Shown: piece after piece, positions 4,404 through 51,531 of the stretch
Layout of the letters: every line of letters starts with the position of its first letter
How positions within the stretch are numbered: position 1 is the first letter of the stretch
Assembly (NCBI GenBank): GCA_035519555.1
Contig: DATIWG010000074.1
Coordinates: 1,292-65,291 of the forward strand
Direction of reading: 5' to 3'
Source of the DNA: Nitrosotalea sp.
GTDB lineage: Bacteria; Methylomirabilota; Methylomirabilia; Rokubacteriales; CSP1-6
Length of the DNA stretch: 64,000 nucleotides
The notes under the pieces: generated by a model
Databases searched by the model: none
Told to the model about the DNA's origin: nothing
Seen by the model: only the letters and a program-made list of their open reading frames with translations
Program-made: the position numbers and the translations under genes

Positions 4404-5846
4404 ATGCGCGAGGCGGGCGACATCCTCCTAGTGGCCTGCTACGAGCTCGGCCATCAGCCCCTGGCGGTGGCATGGCCGGCGGCGTTCCTCGAGCGCGCCG
4501 GCTACCGACCCGCGCTGATGGATGTCTCGGTGGAGCCAGTGGACGACGAGAAGCTCGCCCGCGCCAGGGTCGTCGCCGTCTCGGTGCCGATGCACACCGC
4601 GCTGCGCCTGGGGCTCGAGGTCGCCGCGCGGGCCCGCGCCGTGAATCCCGCCGCCCACGTGTGCTTCTTCGGGCTCTACGCCACGCTCAACTCCGAGTTC
4701 CTCTTCGCGCACGGCGTCGATAGCGTGATCGGTGGCGAGGCGGAGACTCCCCTGTGCTCGCTCATCGACGCGCTCGAGCGGGGCGACGCCGGGTCACTGC
4801 CCGCGGTGGCGCGCCCGGGCCGGCCGGCCGCGCCGTACCTCGAGCGGCTCGACTTCCCGATGCCGAGCCGCTCGGCGCTGCCCTCCATCAAGAAGTACGC
4901 GCACCTCGAGCGCGACGGGCGCATGGAGCTGGTGGCCTATGCGGAGGCCAGCCGCGGCTGCCTGCATCGGTGCCGGCACTGCCCGATCCCGCCGGTCTAC
5001 GGCGGCCGCTTCTTCGCGGTGCCGCGGGAGATCGTGCTGGCCGACGTGCGCCAGCAGATCGAGGCGGGCGCGCGCCACGTCACCTTCGGAGACCCGGACT
5101 TCCTCAACGGGCCGACCCATGCGCTCGCAGTGGCGCGCGCCGTCCACGCCGAGTGGCCGGACGTCACCTTCGACTTCACCGCGAAGATCGAGCACCTGCT
5201 ACGCCATCGCGGCCACCTGCCCGCGCTGCAGGCGGCGGGCTGCCTCTTCATCGTCTCCGCGGCCGAGTCGCTGAGCGACGTCGTGCTCGGACACCTGGAG
5301 AAGGGCCACACGCGCGCCGACATCGCGACCGCGCTCGCGGTCACGCGGCAGGCCGGCATCGCGCTGCGGCCGACGTGGGTGGCCTTCACGCCGTGGACGA
5401 CGCTCGACGATCACCGCGCGTGGCTCGACTTCCTGGCGGTGGAGAACCTGATAGACGCAGTCGATCCGGTGCAGTACGGCCTGCGCCTGCTGGTGCCGCC
5501 GGGCTCGCGGCTGCTCGAGACCGCGGCGCTCGAGCCCCACCTGGGCCCGCTCGAGCGGGAGACGCTCTCCTACCGCTGGACCCATCCCGATCCGCGCATG
5601 GACGCGCTGCAGGTCGAGACGGCGCAGGTGGTGGCCCGGAGCGTGGAGGAAAAAGCCGACGCGCCCGCCATCTTCGACCGCGTGCGCGCGCTGGCCGCAG
5701 CCGCGGCGGGCGTCGCGGCCCCTTCGCCGGTGACCGCAGGCATGAGCAAGGGCCGCAAGCGACCGCCTCGGCTCACCGAGGCGTGGTTCTGCTGAGCGGA
5801 GCCCACCCGGGGCCAGTTGGCCCTGACCTCACCAACGCTTCTCTAG
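4404..5846 (+). CDS. B12-binding-like/radical SAM protein with C-terminal Cys-Sec 'CUAEP' tail (selenoprotein; TGA 5793-5795 read as Sec)
   Basis: Track ORF 4404..5795 ends ...RLTEAWFC + TGA. The next codons are GCG GAG CCC (AEP) and the frame stays open to TAG 5844-5846. The radical SAM CX3CX2C motif is present (SRGCLHRCRHCP). A hairpin lies 13 nt downstream of the TGA. Confidence 0.8.
5808..5825 (+). other. candidate SECIS hairpin for the radical SAM UGA
   Basis: CGGGGCC-AGUU-GGCCCUG: a 7-bp stem (one G-U pair) with an AGUU tetraloop, starting 13 nt 3' of UGA 5793-5795. Confidence 0.5.
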
Positions 5847-5865
5847 CTCAGCGGACGTGGGTCGT

Positions 5866-5909
5866 CCCGGCCACGTGGTGTCGGAAGGCACTCGGCCGGG
5901 CGTTTTCTC
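5866..5909 (+). terminator. weak candidate intrinsic terminator after the radical SAM gene
   Basis: CCCGGCC (5866-5872) pairs with GGCCGGG (5894-5900), followed by CGTTTTCTC. The 21-nt loop is large, so this is weak. Confidence 0.25.
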
Positions 5910-5969
5910 ATGCGGATCTCATGCGAGCCTCATGGTCTGGTTGTTTCATGGCCGGAGGAGGAAATTGCC

Positions 5970-6470
5970 ATGAGACAGAGGATCGCAGCAGGCATCGGCG
6001 CCGGGCTCGTCGCCGGCGTGATCTTCGCGGTGGTGATGCGCATCTTGCCGGTTGCGGCCCCGGACGGGCGCCAGCTCACCATGACCGCCTACGCGGCCCG
6101 GCTCATCCATGCCGTGAGCCCACGGGCCGGCTGGCTCGTCTACCTCGCCTACGCGGTCCTGCTAGGCGCGCTCTACGGCGCGGCCTTCTTCGCGGGCCGG
6201 ACCGGCGGGCTCCGGGCCGCCATCCTGGGCGGGGCGTGGGGACTCGGCTGGTTCGTGCTGACCGGGTTCGGGGTGGTCCCGGCGCTGCTCGGTGACCACC
6301 CGTTCTCCGCCGCCGCGCTCCAGGAGTTGACACGCATCGGGGTGCCGCTGCTGGTGGGCCACATCGTCTACGGCCTGGTGCTCGGGTCGGGCTTCAACCT
6401 GATCATGGGCGCCGTCACCAGACCTGGAAGCTCGGGTCACACGCAGCACGGTATACGGCGGGCCGCGTGA
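5970..6470 (+). CDS. hypothetical integral membrane protein
   Basis: Track ORF 5910..6470. Start moved to ATG 5970 behind GGAGGAG (5954-5960). Several Gly/Ala-rich hydrophobic helices. No family recognised. Confidence 0.6.
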   Translation: MRQRIAAGIGAGLVAGVIFAVVMRILPVAAPDGRQLTMTAYAARLIHAVSPRAGWLVYLAYAVLLGALYGAAFFAGRTGGLRAAILGGAWGLGWFVLTGFGVVPALLGDHPFSAAALQELTRIGVPLLVGHIVYGLVLGSGFNLIMGAVTRPGSSGHTQHGIRRAA

Positions 6471-6488
6471 GTCCGAGGAGGACAGATC

Positions 6489-6920
6489 ATGAGAACGAAC
6501 GCGAATCGGTGGGCTCTCGCTCTGGGCAGCGCGCTCCTGGTCGCTCCGGCAGCATGGGCGGCCGACATCGTCGAGCATTCGGGCAGCGTGACCGCGGTGG
6601 ACGCGGCGCGACACACCATCACGATCGAGGAGATGGGGTCGTGGCACCCCGGCAAGAGGAACGTCAAGCGCGAGGTCTTCGCGCTGACGCCCGAGACTCG
6701 GGTCGAGCTGGCGCGCCGTCAGGAGGTGCCCGGCGGCTACCCCGGTCAATGGACCGAACAGGCGTTGACGTCGTCGGCTCCGCGCGTCGGAGACTTCGCC
6801 ACGATCACCGCCCAGCGCGAGGGCGGACGGCTCCAGGCCACCGCGGTCGTGGTGGTGCGGCCGGACGGCTCGGGACAGCCGCCCGGCCCTCCCGAGGGGC
6901 GGGTGAAGAGCCGGATCTGA
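6489..6920 (+). CDS. hypothetical secreted protein
   Basis: Track ORF with a signal-peptide-like N-terminus (ALALGSALLVAPAAWAAD) and coding-like codon usage. No family recognised. Confidence 0.55.
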   Translation: MRTNANRWALALGSALLVAPAAWAADIVEHSGSVTAVDAARHTITIEEMGSWHPGKRNVKREVFALTPETRVELARRQEVPGGYPGQWTEQALTSSAPRVGDFATITAQREGGRLQATAVVVVRPDGSGQPPGPPEGRVKSRI

Positions 6921-6996
6921 CGCGCCGGGCGAGAGGGCCTCGAGTTCTCATCTGGCCCTCATGGTCCTCTCACGACCCGGTGGTACCGATGATTCC

Positions 6997-8217
6997 ATGA
7001 GCGGTCGACGCGCGCCCCTGGCTGCCCTCGCGCTCGTCGCGCTGGCCGGCACCGGTGTGGTGGCCGCCGCCGGAGTGGGCAGCGCGGATACCTACCAGGC
7101 CATGAGGCTCTATGCCGAGGCGATGTCCGCCATCCACGACGGCTACGTGGACGAGCTGGCGTGGACCAAGATGGTCCGGGATGGCATCCGCGGGGCTGTT
7201 CAGGGTCTCGACGGCGACAGCACGGTGCGCGAGCCGAGCCCATCCGCGGACCATGGGCACCACGCCATCCTGGAGGCGGGCGATGTCGGGCTTGCTTTGG
7301 CCCGTCGCGCCGGATTGCTCACCGTGGTCGCGGCGCCGGCCGGGCTGCCGGCTGCGGGCGCGGGAATCCGATCCGGCGATCGCATCCTGACCTTCGACGG
7401 TGAGGCCGTCGAGGCCGCGACGGCAGAGACGGCCGCACGGCGCCTCCGCGGCCTGCCCGGCAGCCAGGTCTCGCTGACCGTCATCCGGAGCGGCTGGGCC
7501 GAGGCCAAGCCCTTCACCCTCACCCGGGTCGACCCGCCACCCACCGCGCCGAGTCATCGGCTCCTGGACGGCGCGATCCTCTACGTGCGCATTCCCCGGG
7601 TGGACGACACGGCCGCGCGGACGCTCGGCCATGTGCTGACCGCGAGTCCGGCGGATCGGGCCACCGGGCTGGTGCTGGACCTCAGGGACACCGCGGGCGG
7701 GCAGATCGAGGCGGCGCGGGCAATCGCGTCGCTGTTCCTCGATCCGGGCTGCGTGATCACTCACATCGAGAGCCGCGGGTCCGGAACGCCACCGACGCTC
7801 ACGACCGTGAGCGCGCCGTCACGGTGGAACCGGCCCGTGGTGCTCCTGGTGAGCCGGGGCACCGCCTCGGCGGCCGAGGTCCTGGCGGGCGCGATGCAGG
7901 ACACGCGCCGGGCAGTCATCGTGGGCTCGCCGACGTTCGGCGACGCCTCGACCCAGTCCACCATCCCGCTCTCGGACGGCTCCACGCTCTCGCTGACGAC
8001 CGCCCGATATCTGACCCCGCGGCGTCATCCGATCACGGGCCACGGCATCGCGCCCGACGTCGCGCCGTCCGGGGGGCCGCGCGGCGCGACGGCCGGGACC
8101 GACCCCGAGCTGGAGCTGGCCTCCGAGATGGTAAAGGCGGCGAGCATTCTCGAGCACGGCGGCGTGGGTGCGGCCCCCGCCGAGGTCGCGCTCGGGCGCT
8201 GCGACGCTGCCGCCTGA
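6997..8217 (+). CDS. S41 family C-terminal processing peptidase with PDZ-like domain
   Basis: Track ORF 6961..8217, start moved to ATG 6997 (MSGRRAPLAALALVALAG). PDZ-like GIRSGDRILTFDGEAV. Nucleophile block VLLVSRGTASAAEVLAGAMQD. Confidence 0.7.
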   Translation: MSGRRAPLAALALVALAGTGVVAAAGVGSADTYQAMRLYAEAMSAIHDGYVDELAWTKMVRDGIRGAVQGLDGDSTVREPSPSADHGHHAILEAGDVGLALARRAGLLTVVAAPAGLPAAGAGIRSGDRILTFDGEAVEAATAETAARRLRGLPGSQVSLTVIRSGWAEAKPFTLTRVDPPPTAPSHRLLDGAILYVRIPRVDDTAARTLGHVLTASPADRATGLVLDLRDTAGGQIEAARAIASLFLDPGCVITHIESRGSGTPPTLTTVSAPSRWNRPVVLLVSRGTASAAEVLAGAMQDTRRAVIVGSPTFGDASTQSTIPLSDGSTLSLTTARYLTPRRHPITGHGIAPDVAPSGGPRGATAGTDPELELASEMVKAASILEHGGVGAAPAEVALGRCDAAA

Positions 8218-8249
8218 GGAGTGAACCGACGTCTTGCAGGAGGTGCGTG

Positions 8250-8732
8250 ATGGGAACCGTGAAGATGAAGCTGGCCGTGATCGTGGCGCTGCTCCTCGGC
8301 GCGAGCACCGTCGGAGCAACGGAGCAGACGTACACCGCGAAGCTGGACGGCGCCGCCGAGGTGCCCCCGGTCCGGAGCACGGCGTCCGCCGAGGCGACCT
8401 TCACCGTTTCGCCCGACGGCAAGAAGATCGACTACACCCTGATGGTTCGTGATCTCAACGACATCACGATGGCGCACATCCACCTGGGCACGGGGGGCAA
8501 GAACGGCCCGGTCGTGGCCCGGCTCTACCCGATCACGGGCACGTCCAAGCTGATCAAGGGCCAGGACAACGGCCAGCTGGCGAAGGGGGAGATCAGCGAG
8601 GCCAGCCTGCTGGGACCCGAGAAGGGCAAGCCTCTCGCCACCCTCGTCAAGGCCATCCAGGACGGCGACGCCTACGTGAACATCCACACCGCCGAGCACA
8701 AGGCAGGCGAGGTGCGCGGCCAGATCAAGTAG
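8250..8732 (+). CDS. CHRD domain-containing secreted protein
   Basis: Distal part of track ORF 7824..8732. ATG 8250 follows AGGAGG. Signal peptide, then AKLDGAAEVPPV...ITMAHIHLGTGGKNGPVV...YVNIHTAEHKAGEVRGQI, typical of CHRD. Confidence 0.8.
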   Translation: MGTVKMKLAVIVALLLGASTVGATEQTYTAKLDGAAEVPPVRSTASAEATFTVSPDGKKIDYTLMVRDLNDITMAHIHLGTGGKNGPVVARLYPITGTSKLIKGQDNGQLAKGEISEASLLGPEKGKPLATLVKAIQDGDAYVNIHTAEHKAGEVRGQIK

Positions 8733-8740
8733 CGAGCCAG

Positions 8741-9253
8741 CTAGGCCGGACGCGGCACCACGTGCCCGCACTTGCGACAGGTGCGGTGCGCCTGGGCGCC
8801 GTAGAAGTCGGCGTACACCTCGGAGACCGGATCGTCCCGCCAGTCGCCGACCTGCCGCACCGCCTCGTAGAGCAGAGCGCCGCAGGCCGGGCAGTACCAG
8901 AGGAATCGGTCCGACTCGGCCGCCCGCCGCCGGCGCTCGAGCACGAGCACGTACGCGTCCCGCGCGAAGCGCGGCGAGTGCGGAGTGCCGGCCGGGCAGT
9001 GCAGGATCTCGCCCTCGCGGATGACCGCCACCTTCTCCTCGCCGTCGGGCGTGCGGTAGTGCAGGTTCATGTCGCCCTTGATCATGTACATGACCTCGTC
9101 GCTCGGGTCGACGTGGAACTCGCTCCGGCCCTCGCGGCCGCGCGCCACGAAGGCGATCGAGTCGTCGGTCTGCCACAGCACGTTGATCGGCTTGGTGGCC
9201 GACCCGATGATGGCAGTGATCTGATCGAGGTCCAGTGCGCGCATGGCATTCAT
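8741..9253 (-). CDS. nbaC: 3-hydroxyanthranilate 3,4-dioxygenase
   Basis: 170-aa cupin (FHVDPSDEVMYMIKGDMNLHY...GEILHCPAGTPHSP) with a C-terminal rubredoxin-like CPACG...CRKCGH, as in bacterial HAAO. Confidence 0.85.
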   Translation of the reverse strand: MNAMRALDLDQITAIIGSATKPINVLWQTDDSIAFVARGREGRSEFHVDPSDEVMYMIKGDMNLHYRTPDGEEKVAVIREGEILHCPAGTPHSPRFARDAYVLVLERRRRAAESDRFLWYCPACGALLYEAVRQVGDWRDDPVSEVYADFYGAQAHRTCRKCGHVVPRPA

Positions 9254-9266
9254 GGGTCCTGCCTCC

Positions 9267-10301
9267 TCAGTCGATGGTGAGCAGCCGGCGCGGGTTGTCC
9301 ACCAGGATGGCGTCGATCTCGGCCTGGGAGAAGCCTCGCCGGCGCATCATCGGCACGACGTTGGTGAAGATGTGGCCGTAGCCGTGGCCGCCCCAGCGCA
9401 CGAGGCGGGAGCGGTAACAGATGTCGTGCGAGATCAGGATCTGGGCCAGGTGCCCGCGCTCGATCAGCCCGCGGATCGCGCGCAGGCGCACCGCGTCGTT
9501 GGGCATGTCGATGTCGGCCAGCCGGTAGTACGACGACTCCTGCCCGAAGAGGTCCCACTCGAGCACGCATCCCGAATCGGCCAGGCGTCGGAGCCGATCC
9601 GCGTCGAAGACGGTGCGGTCGATGTGGCTGATGATGACCCGGTCCATCCGGCCGCCCTTGACGCGGATGAAGTCGGCCACCTCCTGGGGCTGGTCGGGGT
9701 GGCGGCCCGGGTGGACGTTGATCGCGGCGCCGGTCTGCCGCTGGGCGAGAACCGCCCCCAGCATCACTCGCTGCTCCTGCTGGGTCCACGGCGCTCCGCA
9801 GCCGATCTCCCCGATGATGCCTGCCCGCACGCTCGTGCCCCACGCGCCGTCCTCGATCGACTCGACCATCTCCTCGGCCAGGTCCTCGACGGTGCGTGTC
9901 GCGTTGGCCGGATCCTGGTAGTCGTGCACATAGTGGCCGCAGCCCATCACGATATGAGCGCCGGTGGCGCGGGCGATCTCGACCAGCCCCAGCGGATCGG
10001 GGCTGAGGCCGCCCGAGGAGAGATCGACGACACTCCGGCCGCCCACGGCGAGCATGCGCGACACCTCGTCAGTGGCCACGTCGTGGGCGTCGAGCAGGTA
10101 GTTGCGCGCGGCGTCCTTCACGGTGCCGTAGTTGATGGCCCACACGTTGTCGAGGGCCAGCTCGGGCCCGAGGGCCTCGGGCTTGCGCTGCGACGGGTGG
10201 CGGATGTCGCACAGGAGGTGCTCGTGCATGAGCGTCGGCCCGAGATCGGCCGGCGCGATGGGGCCGAGCACGGTCTGCACGCGGGGCCGTTGTGTGGTCA
10301 C
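9267..10301 (-). CDS. phosphotriesterase-related protein (PTER/amidohydrolase superfamily)
   Basis: GPTLMHEHLLCD N-terminal metal motif, a TIM-barrel amidohydrolase pattern (INVHPG, ISHID, ISHDI) and a length of 344 aa. Confidence 0.85.
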   Translation of the reverse strand: MTTQRPRVQTVLGPIAPADLGPTLMHEHLLCDIRHPSQRKPEALGPELALDNVWAINYGTVKDAARNYLLDAHDVATDEVSRMLAVGGRSVVDLSSGGLSPDPLGLVEIARATGAHIVMGCGHYVHDYQDPANATRTVEDLAEEMVESIEDGAWGTSVRAGIIGEIGCGAPWTQQEQRVMLGAVLAQRQTGAAINVHPGRHPDQPQEVADFIRVKGGRMDRVIISHIDRTVFDADRLRRLADSGCVLEWDLFGQESSYYRLADIDMPNDAVRLRAIRGLIERGHLAQILISHDICYRSRLVRWGGHGYGHIFTNVVPMMRRRGFSQAEIDAILVDNPRRLLTID

Positions 10302-10687
10302 CTACCGATGACCTCGTCCGCCCGCTCGACCAGAGACGCCGGCGCGCAGACCGCCTCCGACCACGAGGACATCCACCGCGCCGCGGACGAGGTCCGCCGC
10401 GAGGGCGGGAACCCGGTCGAGGACACCGCACGCGTACCGATACTCGATGACGATACCCTGCCCCTCGGTGTACCCGAGCTCACGCAGCCCTTGCCAGAAC
10501 GCGCCCAGGAAGGATCACTGGGCGAGGGCGAGCGCCCCCCGATCACGCCGATGCGGGGCACCCGCGACGGCCGCTGCGCCGCCGCGACGAGCGGCGTCGT
10601 GAAGAGGCCGAGGGTCAGGATGGTCGCCACCGCCGTGCGCAGAGTCAGCACGGCGGCGATTCTCCGACAGCCCTCGATCCTGTGCAA
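10298..10687 (-). pseudogene. decayed ABC_sub_bind-type substrate-binding protein gene (frameshift plus large internal deletion)
   Basis: The ORF frame gives signal peptide + AQRPSRVPRIGVIGGRSPSPSD, then nonsense. Shifting +1 near 10505-10519 restores FLGAFWQGLRELGYTEGQGIVIEYRYA..LDRVPALAADLVRGAVDVLVV, typical of the family. The original frame then ends PASLVERADEVIGR, a typical family C-terminus. About 250 aa of the middle is missing. Confidence 0.6.
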
Positions 10688-10736
10688 CGTTCAATGCGCG
10701 CCCGTGATCCCTCAACCCTTCCGGGTGATTGGTGTC

Positions 10737-10800: not shown

Positions 10801-11235
10801 ATGCTCAATCCAGGAGACAAGGCGCCGGATTTCGCGGGCCGCGACCACACCGGCCAGACGGTGCGGCTGGCCGACTTCAAGGGCAAAACGGTCGTGCTCT
10901 GGTTCTACCCGAAGGCCGACACCCCGGGCTGAACCGCGGAGGGTTGCGGGTTCCGCGACCTGAAAGCCGAGTACGACCGGAAGAACGCGGTGATCCTCGG
11001 CGTGTCGTTCGACACCCCGGCCGAGAACAAGCACTTCGCCGAGAAGTTCTCCTTCAACTTCCCGCTGCTCTGTGACACCGACCGGACGATCGGCACCGCC
11101 TACGGCGCCAACGTGGACCCGCAGAAGGGGGCCCAGCGCGTGGGCGTGGTGATCGATGGGAGCGGCAAGATCAAGGAATGGCACGCCCGTGTGGACGCCC
11201 GCGCCTGGCCCGCCGAGGTGGTGAAGACGCTCTAG
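10801..11235 (+). CDS. PrxQ/BCP-type peroxiredoxin with selenocysteine at the peroxidatic position (TGA 10930-10932 read as Sec)
   Basis: My translation: MLNPGDKAPDFAGRDHTGQTVRLADFKGKTVVLWFYPKADTPG-U-TAEGCGFRD, continuing in frame into track ORF 10990..11235. E. coli BCP has FYPKAMTPGCTVQACGLRD at this site, so U aligns with the peroxidatic Cys and the +5 Cys is kept. Strong RBS. Confidence 0.85.
10936..10956 (+). other. candidate SECIS hairpin for the PrxQ UGA
   Basis: GCGGAG-GGUUGCGGG-UUCCGC: a 6-bp stem (one G-U pair) and a 9-nt loop, starting 4 nt after UGA. Confidence 0.45.
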
Positions 11236-13399: not shown

Positions 13400-14073
13400 C
13401 AAAGGTTGGCTTGATCACGGTGGGGCAGGCCCCGCGCAGCGACGTGGTACCGGACATGGCGGCCATCCTGGGCGGCGACGTCGAGATCGTCGAGGCCGGC
13501 GCGCTCGACGGGCTCGCCCGCGAGCAGATCGCCCCGCTCGGCCCCGAAGGCGACGACGAGATCCTGGTCACCCGGCTGGCCGACGGCTCGTCGGTCTTCG
13601 TCAGCAAGACCAAGATGATCCCCCGCATCGAGGCGAGGATCGCCGCCCTCGAGGATCAGGGCGTCGCCCTCAACGTGCTGCTCTGCACCGGCGAGTTCCC
13701 GAAGCTCGCCGCGCGCCGGCCGTTCCTAGAGCCACAGCAGCTGCTGCTGGGTCTCCTCCGAGCGATGGTCTTCCCGGGGCGCCTGGGTGTGCTCACCCCA
13801 TCCGAGCGCCACGTGCCGCAGACCACCGCGCGCTGGCGCGCCTCGGGCTTCGACGCCCACGTGGCCCCGCTCTCTCCCTACGAGGAGAACGACCCCGCCG
13901 CGGTCCGCCGGGCCGCGGACGCGCTGCGGGCCGGGGGCGCGGGCCTGGTGGTCATGGACTGCATCGGCTTCCGCCGCAAGACGCGCGACGAGATCGCGGC
14001 CCTGACCGGCGCGCCGACCCTGGTGGCGAACCTGCTCGTGGCCCGCGTGGCCGCGGAGCTCCTCGGGCGCTGA
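13396..14073 (+). CDS. aroM: AroM family protein
   Basis: 225 aa, collinear with E. coli AroM as I recall it. N-terminal ITVGQAPRSDVVP. The C-terminal LVVMDCIGFRRKTRDEIAALTGAPTLVANLLVARVAAELL matches VIMLDCLGFHQRHRDLL...LLSNVLIARLAAELL. ATGA overlap with the upstream gene. Confidence 0.9.
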
Positions 14074-43911: not shown

Positions 43912-45842
43912 TACTTGACCTTGGAGCCCGAGGGCACGTCCTTGTCGAGGGTGAGGAGCGACACCGTGCCCTCGTGCGAGGCGGCCAAGACCATGCCGTT
44001 GGACTCGACCCCCATCAAGGTGGCGGGCTCGAGATTGGCCACGATCACGACCTTCCGGCCGACCAGGCTCGCCGGCTCGTAGTGCTCGGCCACGCCCGCG
44101 ACCAGCGTGCGCGTCTCCTCCCCCAACCGGATCGTGAGCTTGAGCAGCTTCTTGGACTTCGGCACACGCTCGGCGGCCAGCACCTCGGCCACCCGCAGCT
44201 CCACCTTCTGGAAATCCGCGATCGGGATCTTCCCGGTCCCTGCTCCCTCGGCCCCCGCGCTCCCCTCACCCTGCCCCCTGGCTCCCTCTCTGCCCGCCTT
44301 GGGGAGAGAGCCGGGGTGAGGGGCCTTCGTATCGATCCGTGGAAACAGCCCGGAGATCTTGTTCACCCGCGGCACCGCGGTCAGCCGCCCCACCACGGCC
44401 GCTTCGAGCGTGGGCGCCGCGGTCTGCCCGAGCGCCTCACGAATCTTGCGGGCCGCGTCCGGCAGGAACGGATCCAGCATGATGCCGAGGAACCCCAGCG
44501 AGTCGGCCAGCGTGCACAGCACCCGCTCGAGCCGCGGTCGCCTGGCGGGATCCTTGGCCAGCGCCCACGGCGCGCTCGCGTCTACGTACCGGTTCACGGT
44601 GCCGATGAACGCCCAGATGCCACCGAGCGCCTTCTGGAAGGCGAATTCCCGCATCGCCCGCTCGACCGCGCTCCGCGCCGTCGTCGCCGCGTCTGCGATC
44701 TCCCGATCCGCCGCCTCGATCGGCGCGGTCACCTGCGCCACGGGCCCGGAGGCGGCGATGAGCGTGGTCGCCCGGCTCGCGAGATTGCCGAGGTCGTTGG
44801 CCAGATCGGCGTTCAGCCGGTCGACGAGCGCCTCCTCGCTGAAGCTGGCGTCGAGACCGAAGTTCATCTCGCGCATCAGGAAGTAGCGGAACGCGTCGTG
44901 GCCGTACTTGTCGGTGAGCTGGAAGGCCTCCACCACGTTGCCGATGGACTTGGACATCTTGCTCCCGCCGAGCGACCAGTAGCCGTGGACGTTGAGCCGC
45001 CGATAGAGCGGGATGCCCGCCGCCTTCAGCATGGTGGGCCAGTACACGCCGTGCGGCTTTAGGATGTCCTTGCCGATCAGATGCTCGACGTGTTCCCAGA
45101 GCCCGCGCGTCTTCTGATTCGCCGGGTCGGACACCGCCGAGTAGTAGTTCAGCAACGCGTCGAACCAGACGTAGGTGACGTAGTCGTCGTCGAAGGGCAG
45201 CGGGATGCCCCACACGACCCGCGACTTGGGCCGGCTGATCGACAAATCCTGGAGCGGCTCGCGCAGGAACCCCAGCACCTCGTTGCGGTACCGCTCGGGC
45301 TGGATGAAGCCGGGGTTGTCCTCGAGGTGCTTGATCAGCCAATCCTGGTACTTCGACATCTTGAAGAAGTAGTTCTTCTCCTTGATGAAGGTGAGCGCGG
45401 TCTGGTGATCGGGACACTTGCCGTCCACGATCTCCTTATCGGTGTAGAAGCGCTCGCACCCGTAGCAGTACCAGCCCCCGTACTCCCCGAAGTAGATCTC
45501 CCCCGCGTCGAAGAGCCGCTGCAGGATCTCCTGCACCACCTTCTTGTGCCGCGGCTCGGTGGTGCGGATGAAGTCGTCGTTGGTGATGCCAAGACGCCGC
45601 CAGGTCTCCTGGAAGACCGCCGCGATCTCGTCCGCGTAGGCTTGCGGCGACACTCCGGCCTTGGCCGCTACCTGAGCGATCCGTTCACCGTGCTCGTCGG
45701 TGCCGGTCAGGAGGTACACGCGGTCGCCGGCCAGACGATGGTAGCGGCACATCGCGTCGGCCATGATAGTGGTGCACGCGTGCCCCAGGTGCGGGCGGGC
45801 GTTGACGTAGTAGATCGGGGTGGTGAGGTAGAAGGTGCTCAT
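43911..45842 (-). CDS. metG: methionine--tRNA ligase (with C-terminal tRNA-binding domain)
   Basis: TPIYYVNARPHLGHA (HIGH), KMSKS, four-Cys knuckle (CYGCERF...CPDH), C-terminal Trbp111-like FQKVELRVAEVLAAERVPKSKKLLKLT. Confidence 0.95.
   Translation of the reverse strand: MSTFYLTTPIYYVNARPHLGHACTTIMADAMCRYHRLAGDRVYLLTGTDEHGERIAQVAAKAGVSPQAYADEIAAVFQETWRRLGITNDDFIRTTEPRHKKVVQEILQRLFDAGEIYFGEYGGWYCYGCERFYTDKEIVDGKCPDHQTALTFIKEKNYFFKMSKYQDWLIKHLEDNPGFIQPERYRNEVLGFLREPLQDLSISRPKSRVVWGIPLPFDDDYVTYVWFDALLNYYSAVSDPANQKTRGLWEHVEHLIGKDILKPHGVYWPTMLKAAGIPLYRRLNVHGYWSLGGSKMSKSIGNVVEAFQLTDKYGHDAFRYFLMREMNFGLDASFSEEALVDRLNADLANDLGNLASRATTLIAASGPVAQVTAPIEAADREIADAATTARSAVERAMREFAFQKALGGIWAFIGTVNRYVDASAPWALAKDPARRPRLERVLCTLADSLGFLGIMLDPFLPDAARKIREALGQTAAPTLEAAVVGRLTAVPRVNKISGLFPRIDTKAPHPGSLPKAGREGARGQGEGSAGAEGAGTGKIPIADFQKVELRVAEVLAAERVPKSKKLLKLTIRLGEETRTLVAGVAEHYEPASLVGRKVVIVANLEPATLMGVESNGMVLAASHEGTVSLLTLDKDVPSGSKVK
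44262..44323. repeat. 62-nt imperfect palindromic GC-rich element lying in-frame in the metG interdomain linker
   Basis: CCCCTCACCC (44262-44271) pairs with GGGTGAGGGG (44314-44323). Inner CTCCCTCTCT (44282-44291) pairs with GGGGAGAGAG (44301-44310) with one mismatch. The element encodes APHPGSLPKAGREGARGQGEG. Confidence 0.45.
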
Positions 45843-45863
45843 GCGTCGAGGTGGCCGGCCGCC

Positions 45864-46751
45864 TCAGGCCGGCTTGATGTGGTCGCGGCCTTCCCAGGTG
45901 AGCTGGGCGAGCGGGACCTCCGCCTCGGTGCCGTCCGGGAAGCCGACCACCACCGATTGCTTCAGCACCCGGAGCGAGCGCACCTTGCCGGTCATGCAGC
46001 CGCCTCCGCCGCAATCGGCCGAGCAGGCGCTGTTCACCCGCGGGAGCCGGGAGCGCAGCTCCTCGTAGGTCGAGAACTCGTAGAGCAGGCAGCACTTGAG
46101 CCGCCCGCAGTTGCCGAGCAGGCGGCTGTCGGTGAGCGGCATGTCCTGCCCCTTCGCCATCTTCACCGAGATCGGATCGAACTTGCGCAGGTGCGACGAG
46201 CAGCAGAGCTGCCGGCCACAGGGGCCGATGCCGTCGAGCAGCTTGGTGGTGTCGCGCGCGCCGATCTGGCGCATCTCGATCCGCGCGTGGAACTCGCGGG
46301 CGAGGGCGCGCACGAGGTCGCGGAAGTCCACCCGCTCCTCGGAGTTGAAGAACACGGTGACCCGCCGACGCGACGGCTCGATCTCCACGTCCACGATCTT
46401 CATGGCCAGGGAGCGGCTCCGCGCCAACCGCTGGGAGGTCTCGACACCCTTCACCTCGCGGGTCCGGCGCTCGCGCCAGTCCGTCACCTCGGCCCCGGTG
46501 GCCCGGCGGACGACCTTGCGGTACATGCGGTCCCGCCTGAACTCGGGGATCGGGCGCCGGGGCCGGCGCACCTCACCCACCGTGGTGCCGCCGCCCGTCT
46601 CCACCACCACGAAGTCGCCCACGTGAAGGTCGGCGGCGGTGGTCTGGTAGTCCTCGGCGAGCAGTGGCTCGCGGAGGCGCACACCGATGAGATAGCGGGG
46701 CGTCTCGTCGACCGCGGCCGCGGCGATGGTGGGTTCCATGGCCTCGCTCAT
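45864..46751 (-). CDS. ricT: PSP1 domain protein (YaaT/RicT-like)
   Basis: PSP1 C-terminal block with Cys cluster GPCGRQLCCSSHL...GNCGRLKCCLLYE. Conserved tmk-holB-yaaT synteny. Confidence 0.9.
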   Translation of the reverse strand: MSEAMEPTIAAAAVDETPRYLIGVRLREPLLAEDYQTTAADLHVGDFVVVETGGGTTVGEVRRPRRPIPEFRRDRMYRKVVRRATGAEVTDWRERRTREVKGVETSQRLARSRSLAMKIVDVEIEPSRRRVTVFFNSEERVDFRDLVRALAREFHARIEMRQIGARDTTKLLDGIGPCGRQLCCSSHLRKFDPISVKMAKGQDMPLTDSRLLGNCGRLKCCLLYEFSTYEELRSRLPRVNSACSADCGGGGCMTGKVRSLRVLKQSVVVGFPDGTEAEVPLAQLTWEGRDHIKPA

Positions 46752-46755
46752 GCGA

Positions 46756-47649
46756 TCACGCGCCCTCTCCCGCGAGGCGCCCCAGCAGCACCTCGACGGT
46801 GAGCCGCGGGGAGACGTTGCCCTGGATGGCCAGCCACGCCTCGCGGCAGTCGCGGAGCGCGCCCGTCACCCGCTCGAGCGAGCGCTCGCGCGCCGCCGTC
46901 ACCGCGTCGCTTCGCAGCATCAGACGCGCGGGAGCGTCGGCGAGGCCGCACAGCAGGTCCCGGTACCATAGCCAGCACGCCTCGACGAAGGTCTCCGCGG
47001 CCTGGCGGTCACGGCCCACCTGCTCGCCGAGCCTCAGGATGGCCTCGACCCCGCGCTCCCGCGCCTCGGCGAGGAGCCGCAGGCTGCCCGCGTGGGCGTC
47101 GGTGCGCACGTCGGGGAGCAACGCGGGCACGCCGTCGGTGAGGCGCGGGCGGAAGCGCACGACCTGGCAGCGGGAGAGCACGGTGGCGGGCAGCGCGCGG
47201 ATCTGCGAGAGGACCAGGACGATGACGGTCTGCGCCGGCGGCTCCTCCAGCGTCTTGAGAAACGCCTGGGGCGTCGCCGCGGTCATCTTCTCGGCCTCAT
47301 CGACGACGAAGACCTTCCACGGCGCCTCCATCGGCTTGAGCGCGGCCAGGCGCTCGAGCTCGCGGACCGTCTCGATCCGGAGAGCGTGGGCGCCCTTCGG
47401 ATTGCCCGCGGGCGGCGTGGGCCCGAGCAGGTGCACGTCGGGATGGCGCCCGCGCTCCACCCGCGCGGCCGCGGGCCCGCCGCCGGGCGCCACCAGCGCC
47501 GACGCGAAGGCCAGGGCCGTCGCCTTGCGACCCGAGCCCTCGGGACCGACGAAGGCGTAGGCGTGGGCCACCCGCGACGTGGCGAGCGCGCGGCGCAGGA
47601 GCGTCACCGCCTCGGGCTGGTCGCGGATGCCCTCAAGCGCCACCGGCAT
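46756..47649 (-). CDS. holB: DNA polymerase III subunit delta'
   Basis: HAYAFVGPEGSGRKATALAFA (degenerate P-loop), VFVVDEAEKMT, TVLSRCQ. Confidence 0.85.
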   Translation of the reverse strand: MPVALEGIRDQPEAVTLLRRALATSRVAHAYAFVGPEGSGRKATALAFASALVAPGGGPAAARVERGRHPDVHLLGPTPPAGNPKGAHALRIETVRELERLAALKPMEAPWKVFVVDEAEKMTAATPQAFLKTLEEPPAQTVIVLVLSQIRALPATVLSRCQVVRFRPRLTDGVPALLPDVRTDAHAGSLRLLAEARERGVEAILRLGEQVGRDRQAAETFVEACWLWYRDLLCGLADAPARLMLRSDAVTAARERSLERVTGALRDCREAWLAIQGNVSPRLTVEVLLGRLAGEGA

Positions 47650-48271
47650 CTCCTCGACGGGCCAGGTACTCGTCGACCGCCCGCACCACCTCGACGTGCA
47701 GGACGTCGGCGTCGCGGCCCGCGTCGAGCACCACGACCCGGCGCTTGTCGCTCCGCGCGATCTCGAGATATCCCTCGCGCACGCGCCGGTGGAAGGAGAG
47801 GTCCATCTTCTCGAACGTGTCGAGCGCGCGCGCGCGGATGCGCTGCATGCCGACCGCCGGGTCCAGATCCAGCACCAGCGTGAGGTCCGGCAGCACCCCG
47901 CCGGTGGCGAGCATGTTCAGCTCCTTGATGGTTTGCACGTCCATGCCCTGCCCATAACCCTGGTAGGCCACCGTCGCGTCGGCGTAACGATCCGAGATCA
48001 CCACCGCGCCGCGCGCCAGCGCGGGCGCGATCACACGCGTGACGTGCTCCTGACGGGCCGCCATGAAGAGAAAGGTCTGGGTCAGCGGCGTCGGCGTCGG
48101 GCCGTCGGCCTCGAACAGCGCACGAACGCGCAGGCCCAGCGGCGTGCCGTCGGGCTCACTGGTCTGGACAACTTCGAGGCCCCGGCCGGACAAATAGCGT
48201 GCGAGACGCGCGCACTGGGTCGATTTCCCCGAGCCCTCGACGCCTTCGACCGTGACCAGCGCCCCTCGCAT
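47633..48271 (-). CDS. tmk: dTMP (thymidylate) kinase
   Basis: From ATG 48271. LVTVEGVEGSGKSTQ P-loop, SDRYADATVAYQG, LVLDLD. Confidence 0.9.
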   Translation of the reverse strand: MRGALVTVEGVEGSGKSTQCARLARYLSGRGLEVVQTSEPDGTPLGLRVRALFEADGPTPTPLTQTFLFMAARQEHVTRVIAPALARGAVVISDRYADATVAYQGYGQGMDVQTIKELNMLATGGVLPDLTLVLDLDPAVGMQRIRARALDTFEKMDLSFHRRVREGYLEIARSDKRRVVVLDAGRDADVLHVEVVRAVDEYLARRGDAGGA

Positions 48272-48420
48272 GGGCGTAACTGTAACACACTGATTTGCCG
48301 GGGGCCGCGTCGCCACCATCGTGCCGGCTCAGGGAAATTCGTTCCCTAGTCCTGGCCAAATCGGTTCCTAACGCAAGGCAGCGTAAGGCGCTCGGGCAGG
48401 CATTTCGGCGGCTTTCCCCG

Positions 48421-48436
48421 TGGCCCGGCTCTTGCT
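48421..48436 (+). promoter_or_regulatory. sigma-54 (-24/-12)-like promoter candidate
   Basis: TGGCCC-GGCTC-TTGCT has the exact GG-N10-GC spacing of TGGCAC-N5-TTGCW. It lies in the only long, lower-GC intergenic region, about 180 nt upstream of ATG 48617. Palindrome AGGGAA-N5-TTCCCT (48331-48347) lies about 75 nt upstream of it. Confidence 0.3.
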
Positions 48437-48690
48437 CTACCAATGAAACGCCCGGAGCGGAGCGCGGGTTAACAAAGCACGGGTCCCTCGCCACACACCG
48501 GTTCTGAGCGAGGGAGACCCGCCTCCGCTCTCGGGTCCAAACATCTCGCGCACGCGCGGGGTGGGCGGGAGAAACGAAGAGCAGGATCCGAGCGTCGTAG
48601 TGATGAGAGGGCAAACATGAACTCACGCATCACGCACGTGGGGCTCGCGGGACTGATCAGGACGGCGGTGCTCGTCGGACTGGGGGCGAT

Positions 48691-49047
48691 ATGGCTACTG
48701 GGTGCTTGACGCTACACGGTGTAGGTCTCCGGGGCCGCACGCTCGGCTGGAAAGCAGAGCGGTGCACGAACCCCGACAGCTGTGAGCTGCATCTCTGCGT
48801 CTCGGACGGCCGCGGCGGCTACTGGCATCCCGACGATCCGCTGGCCTTCGCCAAGTGGCGCATCCGCGCCGATCTCGACGTCATCCCGGCCCACGTGCTG
48901 GTCAAGGTAGGCCGCGGCTGGGATCTGATCCGGCGCGGCGCGGTGGTGGGCGCAGTCGGACTCGGCGGCGCCGCGGCGGTGCTCGGCGTGCTCTGGGGAC
49001 GTCAGAGGCGCTTTTCCATGAAGACGCTGAGCGGATCCGGCGCGTAG
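48691..49047 (+). CDS. hypothetical Cys-rich protein with C-terminal TM anchor
   Basis: Track ORF. Third-position GC becomes coding-like after about codon 10. C-terminal GAVVGAVGLGGAAAVLGVLWG helix. Overlaps the convergent GNAT gene by 46 nt. No family recognised. Confidence 0.35.
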   Translation: MATGCLTLHGVGLRGRTLGWKAERCTNPDSCELHLCVSDGRGGYWHPDDPLAFAKWRIRADLDVIPAHVLVKVGRGWDLIRRGAVVGAVGLGGAAAVLGVLWGRQRRFSMKTLSGSGA

Positions 49048-49460
49048 TCGCCGAAGGGCTCGCGCTCGGCGTAGCCTGCCGAGCGATAGAGCCCGAGCGC
49101 CTCGGGCTGGTGAATGCCCGTCTCGAGGCGCACACAGTCGAGACCTTCCTGCCGCGCCTGCTCCTCGATCCGGTCCAGGAGGCGCCGGCCCAGCCGGATG
49201 CCGCGCGCCGCCGGCGTCACGAACAGCCGCTTCAGCTCGCCGTAACCGGCCGCGTCGATGCGCAGCGCCGCGCAGCCCACCGCGGCGACTCCCCGACGGG
49301 CGACCAGGAACCGGATGTTCGGGGCGGCCAGCGCCTCGACGTCGAGGAAGTGGTTGCTCTCCGGGGGGTACAGCGCGCTCTGGTACGCGTCGAGCTCTTC
49401 CAGCAGGCGCGTCACGTCGGCCTGGCGCGGCGATTCCAGCCTCAGCGTGACGTCGGTCAT
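49002..49460 (-). CDS. GNAT family N-acetyltransferase
   Basis: From ATG 49460 (ATGA overlap with the upstream gene). ELKRLFVTPAARGIRLGRRLLDRIEEQARQEG is acetyl-CoA motif A. Confidence 0.85.
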   Translation of the reverse strand: MTDVTLRLESPRQADVTRLLEELDAYQSALYPPESNHFLDVEALAAPNIRFLVARRGVAAVGCAALRIDAAGYGELKRLFVTPAARGIRLGRRLLDRIEEQARQEGLDCVRLETGIHQPEALGLYRSAGYAEREPFGDYAPDPLSVFMEKRL

Positions 49461-50332
49461 CTCACACGCAGCCGACGCTCGGCGCGCCGGGCGACCGCCC
49501 AGTACCGGAGCGCGGGCGGAGCGAGCGGAAGCGCCCGGCGCGTGACGGCGGCCAGGACCCGAAGCGCACGCTCCCGCCGCCGGTCCCAGGAAAGCCCGTA
49601 CGCGGCGCGAACCGTGGGAGGCAGCAGACCCACCGTCGGCAGGGCGGCCAACCAGAGCGCGGGCCCGAGCACGCGGGAGGCGGATGGCGCCAGGATCTCC
49701 CGCGAGAGGCCGCGGGCGGTATCGGTGACCTCGATCGCACCAGACGCCAGCATCGTCTCGAGATAGTCGTGCAGATGCGCCTCGGTGCGGGGCAGATGGC
49801 CGGCCGGGATCCCGAGATGCATCTCGATCCCGCTCGCCTCCCCGCAGTACCGATCGGCGGCGGCCGGGCTGATCGGCCCCACGAAGAGCCGGTAGGCGAG
49901 GAGGAAGGAGTCCAGCAGGGTGGCGTGCACCCAGGTCAGCAGGGCCGGATCGTGAGCGCTGTAGCCGGCGCCGGCCGGGGCTCCGCCGGCGGGCTCGCCG
50001 AGCCGGCCATGCACACGGTCGTGGATGGCGTTGATCCGCGAGGCCGCGGCGCTGGCCTCCTCGGCCGGTCCGAAGGTGAGCGCGAGCATCGAGCGCAGGG
50101 TCCGGTGCAGGCGTCGGAGCCGGCCCCAGGGCTCGGTCGTGAAGGCGCTGTGCTCGGCAACCCCCCGGGCCACCATCGGGTGCGCGATCTGGAGCAGGAT
50201 CGCCCGGCCCCATCCCGCGAGCAGCACGCGCTCGCGATGGATTGTCCACGCCACGCCGCGGCCCGCGATACCATCGGGTTCGGGCCGATCGGCGACTGCA
50301 GACCGATCGGAGACTGCAAGCAGATCGGGCAT
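49457..50332 (-). CDS. oxygenase MpaB family (DUF2236) protein
   Basis: ERVLLAGWGRAILLQIAHPMVARGVAEHS, INAIHDRVHG, LTWVHATL blocks. The start is uncertain because codons 2-17 coincide with a tandem DNA repeat. Confidence 0.75.
   Translation of the reverse strand: MPDLLAVSDRSAVADRPEPDGIAGRGVAWTIHRERVLLAGWGRAILLQIAHPMVARGVAEHSAFTTEPWGRLRRLHRTLRSMLALTFGPAEEASAAASRINAIHDRVHGRLGEPAGGAPAGAGYSAHDPALLTWVHATLLDSFLLAYRLFVGPISPAAADRYCGEASGIEMHLGIPAGHLPRTEAHLHDYLETMLASGAIEVTDTARGLSREILAPSASRVLGPALWLAALPTVGLLPPTVRAAYGLSWDRRRERALRVLAAVTRRALPLAPPALRYWAVARRAERRLRVR
50285..50329. repeat. 18-nt tandem direct repeat, about 2.5 copies
   Basis: CCGATCGGCGACTGCAGA (50285-50302), CCGATCGGAGACTGCAAG (50303-50320), CAGATCGGG (50321-50329). 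Each unit carries a GATCGG core (the first two carry the CGATCG palindrome). Lies between or over the divergent mpaB-like and Sec-Prx starts. Confidence 0.7.
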
Positions 50333-50437
50333 GGACGCATTATGACGCGGCCGGGCAACTTCCGCCCCGCCGGGAAACTTCTACTGGTCGCCGGTCGTTG
50401 TGTGGTCGTCACCCCTCACTCTGGAAAGGAGAGCGCC

Positions 50438-50977
50438 ATGCGTCGAGCTGCCCCGCTGCTGGTCATGGCCCTGCTGCTGACCGGGCTGGTTCTGCCGGTC
50501 GCCGCCCTGGAAGTCGGCCAGAAGGCGCCCGACTTCACCCTGTCGGCCCCCGGCGGCAAGAAGGTCAATCTGTCGGACCTCACCGCCAAGGGACCCGTCG
50601 TCATCTTCACCTTCATCCAGGCCTTCACCGGCACCTGAACCAAGGAACTGCTCGGCTTCGAGGGGGCCCTGCCCCAGTTCGAGGCCGCCGGCGCCCAGGT
50701 CGTGGGCGTGAGTGCCGACCATGTCGCAACGCTGGAAGCCTGGGGCAAGCAGAACAAGATCAGCTACCTCCTGCTGTCCGATTTCGGCCGCACGATGCTT
50801 CCGGCCTACGACGCGATGGTCACCGACGAGAAGAGCCCGATCTTCCGGTACGCCAAGCGCGCGTACTACGTGATCGACAAGAACGGGGTGGTCCGCTGGG
50901 CCAAGATCCAGACGAACGCTCTCGACCTGCTCGACCCCGCCGACGTGCTCAAGGCGCTGAAGGACTCGGGCGTCTGA
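50438..50977 (+). CDS. exported AhpC/TSA-family peroxiredoxin with selenocysteine at the peroxidatic position (TGA 50636-50638 read as Sec); no Cys residues
   Basis: AAGGAG RBS then ATG 50438. MRRAAPLLVMALLLTGLVLPVAA signal peptide. ...VVIFTFIQAFTGT-U-TKELLGF... continues in frame into track ORF 50702..50977. U occupies the FTxxCTxE peroxidatic site. Confidence 0.85.
50645..50680 (+). other. candidate SECIS region for the exported Prx UGA
   Basis: GAACTG (50645-50650) pairs with CAGTTC (50675-50680). These enclose small GC stems CTCG-GCTT-CGAG (50651-50662) and GGGGC-CCT-GCCCC (50663-50675). The exact fold is ambiguous. Confidence 0.35.
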
Positions 50978-51531
50978 TGGTCGTCACGCGCGCCGCCGGT
51001 GGCCTGATCGCGGCGGCGCTCTGGGCCACGGCCGCGGCGGCGCAGCCCGCCGCCGCGCCGCCGGCCTGGGAGAAGATGGGCGTGCAGACGTACGAGCCGC
51101 CCAAGCCCGCGCCCGTCTTCGCCCTGCCCGCTCTCGACGGCCATACGGTGCGGCTCGAGGACTTCAAGGGCAAGGCGCTCGTCCTCTTCTTCTGGGCCAC
51201 GTGGTGACCGGACTGCCGGGAGGAGTTGCCTTCCGTCAACCGGTTGTACCAGGAGTTCAAGGGCCAGGGGCTCGAGGTCCTGCTGATCTCCTTCCGCGAG
51301 AGCGCCGACCTGGTGAAGCGCACCGCGGCCGAGCGCGGCTACACCGCGCCCGTGCTCCTCGACGCGTCCGGTGACGTCACGGGGCGAATCTACGGCGTGT
51401 GGGGGCCACCCACCGCCTACTTCGTGAACCGCGAAGGGCGTCTCGTCGGCCGGTTGATGGGGGCCAAGGACTGGAGCAGCCCCGCCGCGCGCGACCTGAT
51501 CCGCTCGCTCGTCGCCCCGGCGCCCCGCTGA
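50977..51531 (+). CDS. exported TlpA/ResA-like thioredoxin-fold protein with U-x-x-C active site (TGA 51205-51207 read as Sec)
   Basis: ATG 50977 overlaps the upstream TGA (TGATG). Signal-like GGLIAAALWATAAAAQP. ...ALVLFFWATW-U-PDCREELP... continues in frame into track ORF 51226..51531. It matches WxxWCxxC of TlpA/ResA, with U replacing the first Cys. Confidence 0.85.
51219..51234 (+). other. candidate SECIS hairpin for the TlpA-like UGA
   Basis: GGAGG-AGUUGC-CUUCC: a 5-bp stem (one G-U pair), 12 nt after UGA. An alternative CCGG-ACUG-CCGG lies at 51208-51219. Confidence 0.4.

Follow-up and report, generated by a model that had tools for sequence, protein, structure and literature searches.

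We analyzed a 64,000-nucleotide (nt) stretch of contig DATIWG010000074.1, hereafter the window (G000:C74:1292-65291 in our shorthand, in which C plus a number denotes a contig of the host genome, G000). The host is a Candidatus Rokubacteria (Methylomirabilota) metagenome-assembled genome (MAG) from soil or groundwater, comprising 4.59 Mb in 115 contigs with 70% guanine plus cytosine (GC) and an estimated completeness of 83.6%. Four genes in the window carry a TGA codon (UGA in the mRNA), at positions 5793, 10930, 50636 and 51205, that lies in frame and is flanked on both sides by coding-type composition. Read with selenocysteine (Sec; U in one-letter code) at the TGA, these genes are the following:

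4404..5846, + strand: gene 1, B12-binding radical SAM selenoprotein with a CUAEP/CCAEP tail (NF040546), 480 residues, stop codon TAG at 5844

10801..11235, + strand: gene 2, PrxQ/BCP-type peroxiredoxin, 144 residues (PF00578, 126 bits)

50438..50977, + strand: gene 3, secreted AhpC/TSA peroxiredoxin of the 1-Cys type, 179 residues (PF00578, 106 bits)

50977..51531, + strand: gene 4, TlpA/ResA-like periplasmic thiol-disulfide oxidoreductase, 184 residues (matches to PF00578, PF08534 and thioredoxin-like Pfam families)

In each gene the Sec codon replaces a Cys that can be aligned to homologues, and homology runs past the UGA in all four, as expected of selenoprotein genes. A reading made from the sequence alone had placed the four TGAs at redox-active Cys positions with coding sequence continuing beyond each, and the frames, family assignments, alignments and conservation described below all agree with it. 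We consider it very likely that three unlinked loci of the window hold four bacterial selenoprotein genes of an ordinary kind, whose UGA codons are decoded as Sec.

The product of gene 1 matches the NF040546 profile at 687 bits (cut-off 500) over positions 1-467 of 468. It contains the B12-binding (PF02310) and Radical_SAM (PF04055) domains, together with a CLHRCRHC sequence corresponding to the radical SAM CxxxCxxC cluster motif, placing it within this family. The next-best family, ArsL, reaches 314 bits against a cut-off of 450, and the protein is therefore not ArsL. The Sec codon (5793-5795) encodes U464 within the FCUAEP tail (residues 462-467), and the C-terminus reads ...AWFCUAEPTRGQLALTSPTLL. 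Gene 2 has the features of a PrxQ/BCP peroxiredoxin: an AhpC/TSA domain, the PxxxTxxC motif with U in the place of Cys, and a resolving Cys five residues on. Its Sec codon (10930-10932) encodes U44 in the sequence YPKADTPGUTAEGC. U44 is aligned to the peroxidatic Cys of the solved PrxQ structure 2ywn (FTQVCTKEMC), the resolving Cys is aligned as well, and the residue opposite U is Cys in all eight paralogues encoded in the host genome.

Gene 3 has its Sec codon at 50636-50638 (FTGTUTKE). Here too U is aligned to the peroxidatic Cys of 2ywn, and Cys occupies this position in 3/3 paralogues of the same genome. There is no resolving Cys at +5, and of the PxxxTxxC motif the Thr at -3 is present while the Pro at -7 is replaced by Ile (IQAFTGTU). 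The N-terminus is signal-peptide-like. In gene 4, the Sec codon at 51205-51207 falls in WATWUPDC, which is aligned to WATWCPPC of 3kcm such that U takes the place of the first Cys of WCPPC. The residue opposite this U is Cys in five of eight own-genome paralogues and Thr in the other three. The N-terminus, MVVTRAAGGLIAAALWATAAAA, resembles a signal peptide or anchor as judged by eye; the thioredoxin-like fold, the WUxxC motif and this predicted export place the protein among TlpA/ResA/DsbE-type oxidoreductases. Gene 2 scores 106.6 bits against the equivalog PRK09437/NF006960 (cut-off 140), gene 4 scores 95.8 bits against the ResA subfamily (cut-off 170), and gene 3 falls below every NCBIfam equivalog cut-off. 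Because all three reach Pfam thresholds but none of the named NCBIfam equivalog cut-offs, we assign them at the family level only.

The stop codon of gene 3 overlaps the start ATG of gene 4 by one base (TGATG, 50975-50979). The two genes form one operon, and their products, both with signal-peptide-like N-termini and the peroxiredoxin without a resolving Cys, plausibly constitute an extracytoplasmic peroxidase and its reductant. The pairing is kept within the genus and, of 14 additional loci that we fetched, in two sister-family loci (L055 and L062). Elsewhere in the window, same-frame TGAs at 14071, 29585 and 45866 (minus strand) proved to be ordinary stops between adjacent genes.

Under the standard bacterial code (table 11), the four genes are read as seven pieces:

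4404-5795, + strand: gene 1, truncated, 463 residues

10801-10932 and 10990-11235, + strand: gene 2, 43 and 81 residues

50438-50638 and 50702-50977, + strand: gene 3, two pieces

50977-51207 and 51226/51244-51531, + strand: gene 4, two pieces

This is the number of fragments that the sequence-only reading had expected of standard gene callers. Public protein collections hold exact copies of five of the seven pieces (the 463-, 43-, 81-, 66- and 76-residue fragments), and several of the public fragment entries are labelled "peroxiredoxin Q/BCP". A public cluster at 90% identity that includes the 43-residue N-terminal fragments of gene 2 also lists 708-residue malate synthase entries, apparently an artefact that arises when such short sequences are clustered.

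The TGA codons are conserved well beyond the host genome. That of gene 4, whose orthologues were compared across 40 related genomes, is kept in 20/20 genomes of the same genus (73-85% protein identity) and also, at 56-64% identity, in the sister family; paralogues further removed, which contain Cys, have no stop at that position. The gene 2 TGA is kept in 17 genomes of the genus and two of the sister family, and that of gene 3 in 20 orthologous loci. For gene 1, a scan of species-representative genomes yielded 80 loci, including distant copies in MAGs of Planctomycetota, Gemmatimonadota, Nitrospirota and Verrucomicrobiota. The tail is CUAEP or CUSEP in 71 of these and CCAEP in the remaining nine.

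The window contains no tRNAs and, as had been observed from the sequence alone, no sel genes, and the machinery was located on other contigs of the host (C32, C48 and C82). ARAGORN identified a single tRNA-Sec with anticodon TCA (C32:9393-9490). Adjacent to it on the same contig lie selA (C32:10925-12277, 583 bits) and selB (C32:12499-14382, 384 bits, covering profile positions 1-580 of 581), and selD is found at C48:18408-19349 (338 bits). All three scores exceed the curated cut-offs. The selD gene itself carries a TGA, and a second selD-like gene is present on C82, so that the genome holds tRNA-Sec, selA, selB and two selD genes. TGA terminates 987 of 1,698 long open reading frames (ORFs) and is still the main stop codon, so there is no global reassignment. 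The sel locus is compact (G000:C32:7200-14400) and begins with a gene for an AhpD-like CxxU selenoprotein (TGA at 7486), followed by tRNA-Sec, selA and selB.

By analogy with the established bacterial pathway, SelD would make selenophosphate, with which SelA would convert Ser-tRNA(Sec) into Sec-tRNA(Sec). SelB, bound to guanosine triphosphate and Sec-tRNA(Sec), would then bind a bacterial Sec insertion sequence (bSECIS) hairpin starting 8-12 nt past the UGA (+12 to +16) and presenting an apical loop with a leading G about 20-25 nt from the UGA, so that the tRNA, and not a release factor, enters the A site. The incorporated Sec would substitute for the peroxidatic Cys in the two peroxiredoxins (genes 2 and 3), for the nucleophilic first Cys of CxxC in gene 4, and, in gene 1, whose substrate is uncharacterized, for the second Cys of the CC motif at the C-terminus. 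The general bSECIS model, as given in a review, has a loop of 3-9 nt, one of whose two opening bases is a G with, as a rule, G or U next to it, and a helix of at least 4 base pairs (bp) (PMC13188914). The bSECISearch model of Zhang and Gladyshev, as relayed in the same review, sets the upper helix at 4-16 bp and the distance from UGA to loop at 16-37 nt (PMC13188914).

Three of the genes have a predicted hairpin that fits this consensus, with AGUU, GUU and AGUUG loops on helices of 7-9 bp; loop positions are counted from the U of UGA:

5808..5825, + strand: gene 1, 7-bp helix (5808-5814/5819-5825), loop AGUU at 5815-5818 (+23 to +26)

10941..10961, + strand: gene 2, 9-bp helix (10941-10949/10953-10961), loop GUU at 10950-10952 (+21 to +23)

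51217..51235, + strand: gene 4, 7-bp helix (51217-51223/51229-51235), loop AGUUG at 51224-51228 (+20 to +24)

The hairpin of gene 1 is the best sampled. Its MAFFT alignment (A1) is ungapped, which leaves 4-nt and 5-nt loops out of register, and we therefore counted helices sequence by sequence. A helix of 5-8 bp is present in each of the 69 unique Sec-form sequences, 64 of which start the loop at +23, and its pairs show compensatory changes (C-G to U-A, G-C to A-U and C-G to G-C). Orthologue loops are AGUU (39), AGUUC (11), AGUUG (7), AGGU (4) and AGUUA (3). Seven Cys forms have only 2-6 bp and lack the loop. Past U, some 16 residues (TxGQ-L/F/V-...) co-vary in a way that preserves the helix, alternating among GQLAL, GQFGP, GQLDP and GQVAL in step with it, and have diverged in the Cys forms. 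The tail past U is largely a carrier of the SECIS element. The gene 2 hairpin is identical in 16 orthologues save for one G-U to A-U change; an alternative 4-bp helix proposed in the sequence-only reading is broken at locus L050. For gene 4, 96.8% of helix cells are paired among 27 distinct orthologue sequences, pair 16-28 occurring as G-U, G-C or A-U, and the loops are AGUUG (14), AGUUA (12) and AGGUA (1).

Codon choice tells a similar story. Within 5815-5820 and 51224-51232, which cover loop and arm sequence of genes 1 and 4, the loops are formed by rare Leu codons, namely TTG, which makes up 2.6% of host Leu codons, and in orthologues TTA (0.09%). The 3' arm of the gene 4 helix uses the Pro codon CCT, 3.3% of host Pro codons. 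Such rare codons in loops and arms show selection on the RNA, for a U after the G rather than for a particular tetranucleotide. The compensatory changes in the helices of genes 1 and 4 and the loss of the helix in Cys forms of gene 1 likewise point to selection on the RNA. These two hairpins offer a clean natural case of an RNA signal overriding codon bias and shaping a protein tail.

The density of in-frame TGAs had suggested a selenoprotein-rich organism, and a survey of the whole genome supports this, yielding 27 selenoprotein genes despite the incompleteness of the MAG. We scored codon usage on both sides of every TGA and followed this with family searches, a SECIS descriptor and self-homology. 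With relaxed coding filters, the self-BLAST of read-through ORFs gave mostly off-frame or antisense matches between paralogues and became informative once filtered for matches that were aligned to Cys and had coding signal. The SECIS descriptor passed 79 of 3,866 coding-context TGAs; the 17 of these with a downstream coding score of at least 0.35 are selenoprotein genes (15 already listed, 2 new), two short, low-scoring ORFs excepted. The genes are distributed as follows:

Window: 4 genes

UGSC family: 9 genes

AhpD/YciW-like CxxU: 4 genes

OsmC/Ohr-like: 3 genes

Further peroxiredoxin: 1 gene

Further thioredoxin-like UxxC: 1 gene

SelL-related: 1 gene

PDO_seleno_TRX: 1 gene

WAxxUGC: 1 gene

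SelD: 1 gene

MerB-like: 1 gene

Six of the 18 AhpC/TSA-domain genes of the genome carry a TGA. Besides SelD and the MerB-like lyase, the 27 genes are of thiol-redox type or uncharacterized (the nine UGSC genes and the radical SAM gene). FdhA is the commonest selenoprotein in most Sec-using bacteria, and the host differs: its fdhA (G000:C105:1338-3356, + strand; TIGR01591, 727 bits) has no in-frame stop and is therefore the Cys form. For this gene, the idea that fdh could serve as a further test of the SelB motif discussed below falls away.

Several of the additional genes merit separate mention. The nine UGSC paralogues are at C1:44444, C21:2827, C35:95114, C51:184836, C55:35313, C66:76237, C66:82483, C52:7725 and C75:8112. 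Those at C66:76237, C52:7725 and C75:8112 extend some 440-470 residues past the UGSC domain, a fusion to a second domain to which no family was assigned. Seven of the nine share a near-identical SECIS core, GCAGUNUGC, with G at +23. An in-frame TGA is also found in a gene for a 240-residue protein of the alkylmercury lyase (MerB-like) family (L149, G000:C75:13891-14610, - strand). Its U (PYYLUTGMNLF) is aligned to a Cys of MerB2 (5c17), which we take to be the C-terminal catalytic Cys. Nineteen related genomes retain the TGA (81-92% identity), one more distant copy has two TGAs, and the predicted hairpin has 7 bp and a GGUC loop at +23. The protein scores far below the MerB and SaoL selenoprotein cut-offs and may therefore represent a separate Sec-containing MerB-like subfamily. 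An Ohr/OsmC-like ORF (G000:C49:15261, - strand) carries a TGA that lies 20 codons from its end (...ETWQDRUPLYRT...), in the place of the family's second Cys, with a 7-bp hairpin and a GGUC loop at +24; we regard it as a probable selenoprotein, although its family match is weak. Other candidates were rejected: at C39:1005 an NHL-repeat protein precedes a membrane protein, C40:32778, C67:146494, C20:26704 and C95:80502 have antisense-like composition, and C55:40042, C57:54334 and C64:24445 have neither a family nor a hairpin.

What these sites share is the canonical bacterial SECIS, seen in geometry and loop content. We compared 25 Sec sites picked without reference to structure with 500 TGC codons that are in frame. 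A 3-7-nt loop that starts at +19 to +31 and is closed by six or more uninterrupted Watson-Crick pairs is present at 84% of Sec sites and 7% of controls; when GU is also required in the loop, the figures are 60% and 1%. If six or more Watson-Crick pairs are demanded, the published consensus is matched at 23/27 sites and by 10% of controls. The hairpins come from unrelated genes and measure 17-25 nt, with loops of 3-6 nt; they have a helix of 6-10 bp and a small loop that opens with G or NG. The loop begins at +20 to +25 in 22 of the 27 sites and starts with GU in 17 and GG in five, and in 17/18 cases GU has its G at +21 to +25. The corresponding bases of Escherichia coli fdhF are G23 and U24.

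Several observations weigh against Sec decoding of these genes through bSECIS hairpins, or at least temper it. The case for recoding and read-through is built entirely from sequence. Predicted folding energy downstream of the codon differs little between Sec sites and controls (-17.7 versus -16.0 kcal/mol, p = 0.014), and since energy barely separates the two at 70% GC, the case for the hairpins rests on helix geometry and loop content. Searches against Rfam returned no match to the hairpins, either at gathering thresholds over the whole window or at E values up to 10 on three loci. The C49 ORF and the MerB-like gene (C75:14145) were first picked by the hairpin descriptor and are therefore not independent for the hairpin statistics; the latter has independent support from its TGA in the 19 relatives and its alignment to the MerB2 Cys, and the former matches the Ohr family at only 22.7 bits, below the curated cut-off. 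Lastly, the best-supported structure of gene 3 has no G at either of the two opening positions of its apical loop, and its two candidate structures are about equally well paired.

Gene 3 is accordingly where an alternative retains the most room. Its candidate recoding structure consists of two competing predicted hairpins:

50648..50687, + strand: gene 3, small hairpin (50648-50654/50659-50665) and long irregular hairpin (50653-50687)

The small hairpin has a GCUU loop at +20 to +23; its helix comprises 4+2 bp in the window and a perfect 7 bp in six orthologues, one orthologue having a GUUU loop. The long hairpin extends from +18 to +52; its apical loop lies near +31 to +36, and AG (50676-50677) is bulged. 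Helix cells are 84% paired with zero compensatory changes in the small hairpin and 81% paired with two compensatory pairs, in the basal part, in the long one, the base of which is retained by RNAalifold (-7.9 kcal/mol). The options for matching the consensus are a GCUU or a GAG loop, both weak. One possibility, which we think unlikely but would not dismiss, is that gene 3 is recoded via the long irregular hairpin, with no conserved apical G, as a distinct class of bacterial SECIS. The two compensatory pairs in the basal helix (18-27/43-52) with their invariant flanks and the variable apical loop lacking G[G/U] are consistent with this, and, according to a review, some bSECIS elements fall outside the model (PMC13188914). 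However, the small hairpin presents a loop with a leading G at the canonical distance in a helix that is perfect in six orthologues, the invariant AGUUC can be explained by conserved Gln/Lys-Phe residues, and the evidence comes from just 15 distinct, closely related sequences. We give a lower probability still to the fuller proposal that gene 3 uses a SECIS outside the G-first model defined by a long irregular hairpin whose base is conserved, whose apex varies and whose bulged AG-UU is invariant. If so, the Rokubacterial SelB would tolerate, or a second determinant would supply, a different recognition geometry for gene 3, and the CGGG, CGGGAA and GAUC loops of other host genes would belong to the same relaxed specificity.

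The clustering of the four genes raises the question of a functional selenoprotein island, its density arising through co-regulation or joint transfer, which we consider improbable. Four genes within 47 kb do exceed the 0.38 expected per 64 kb from 27 genes in 4.59 Mb, and genes 3 and 4 form one operon. That operon, however, leaves no more than three independent loci; by Poisson statistics, three or more have a probability of about 0.006 per window, and with about 72 windows some 0.4 such cases are expected by chance. The neighbouring genes are unrelated, comprising an MFS transporter, an S41 peptidase, a phosphotriesterase, an ABC-type binding protein, a GNAT acetyltransferase, a luciferase-like monooxygenase and an FMN reductase. 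The MFS transporter lies upstream of gene 1 and was discarded as a candidate conserved partner of the radical SAM protein, being kept only within the genus. In most relatives, orthologues of genes 2 and 4 lie on different contigs, although in genomes G013 (contig C14) and G020 (contig C62) they are found on one contig at a distance of some 36-43 kb. The density is a reflection of a selenoprotein-rich genome, not of an island.

A further proposal of the sequence-only reading was that a recurring (A/G)GUUG apex might be a lineage-specific SelB recognition motif. The letters are indeed there (CAGUUG at 5814-5819, GGUUGC at 10942-10947, AGUUGC at 51224-51229 and AGUU at 50676-50679), but only 5815-5818 and 51224-51228 are apices. 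GGUUGC in gene 2 belongs to the 5' arm of the 9-bp helix, whose loop is the GUU at 10950-10952, and the AGUU of gene 3 is a bulge or 3'-arm segment. That the SelB of this lineage reads such an apex, distinct from the general bacterial signal, has very little to recommend it. In its favor are the AGUU(G) loops of genes 1 and 4 and of the thioredoxin-like gene at C66:48365, the GUU loops of gene 2, an OsmC-like gene and an AhpD-like gene, and the very rare UUG and UUA codons employed to build them. Across the genome, however, GUUG stands at the apex of 4/27 sites (genes 1 and 4, C66:48365 and C88:78598) and GUU at 6-7. Seven UGSC-type hairpins have AGUGU, AGUCU or AGUAU loops, and GGUC, AGGUC, CGUGU, GUG, CGGG, CGGGAA, GGGC and GAUC are found at other sites. 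Among orthologues, the last G of the loop is A in about half of the TlpA-like genes, one of which has AGGUA, and gene 1 also occurs with AGGU and AGUUC. Moreover, copies of gene 1 in Planctomycetota, Gemmatimonadota and Verrucomicrobiota have an AGUU loop, which is therefore not specific to this lineage, and the host selB fits the standard model over its full length. The published pan-bacterial consensus calls for a G at the start of the loop, in position one or two, with G or U after it (PMC13188914), and the loop features here are an instance of this. The letters GUUG arise from an NAG codon (Gln or Glu) followed by Leu-UUG; the apparent motif is the canonical SelB-binding GU set in a codon frame of NAG plus Leu-UUG/UUA or Phe-UUC.

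Least credible of all is that the TGAs are true stops, sequencing errors or pseudogene lesions with separate genes or remnants downstream: gene callers and public collections do read them as stops, but the same TGA recurs at the same catalytic position with conserved flanks in dozens of independent MAGs, which excludes pseudogenes and sequencing errors, single Pfam domains cross the codon, the downstream fragments have no catalytic residue of their own, and hairpins accompany the U forms and are absent from the C forms.

The reading of the window as four selenoprotein genes places each of them in a published group. A search of the literature on Rokubacteria together with selenocysteine returned nothing relevant, and the pertinent comparisons are with families and genomes described elsewhere. 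The family NF040546 was named as an uncharacterized CU-motif selenoprotein family (Haft and Gwadz 2022, bioRxiv 10.1101/2022.07.06.499078); gene 1 matches it at full length, with both domains and the exact FCUAEP tail, and the protein shows no differences. Peroxiredoxin-like, thioredoxin-like, AhpD-like, OsmC-like and UGSC proteins are all listed bacterial selenoproteins (PMC13188914, PMC1794560). Genes 2 to 4 share with the known peroxiredoxin- and thioredoxin-like groups, among them PrxQ/BCP-type peroxiredoxins and TlpA/ResA/DsbE-like UxxC oxidoreductases, the AhpC/TSA fold, U at the peroxidatic Cys or the first Cys of CxxC, and Cys-containing paralogues in the genome, and gene 3 differs in lacking both the Pro of PxxxTxxC and a resolving Cys.

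All four families are in the literature, as are the SECIS consensus and the abundance of selenoproteins in Methylomirabilota, and our result is an annotation fix. Public databases store these genes, together with at least 23 others of this MAG, as truncated or split fragments without their catalytic residue, and as a consequence Rokubacteria are under-annotated for redox and radical SAM functions. The known picture of Sec decoding is unchanged by these genes. Like bSECIS elements in general, the host hairpins lie in coding sequence just past the UGA, with loop, helix and spacing within the model, whereas their spacing is tighter than the range permitted by the general model and they have no evident bulged U; gene 3, and perhaps the sites on C12 and C105, fit poorly. 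A Methylomirabilota MAG has been predicted to hold 63 selenoprotein genes, described in the review as the largest bacterial selenoproteome so far (Deng et al., via PMC13188914). The genome studied here belongs to the same phylum and likewise has a large, mostly redox selenoproteome, although we count 27 genes in an assembly that is 83.6% complete.

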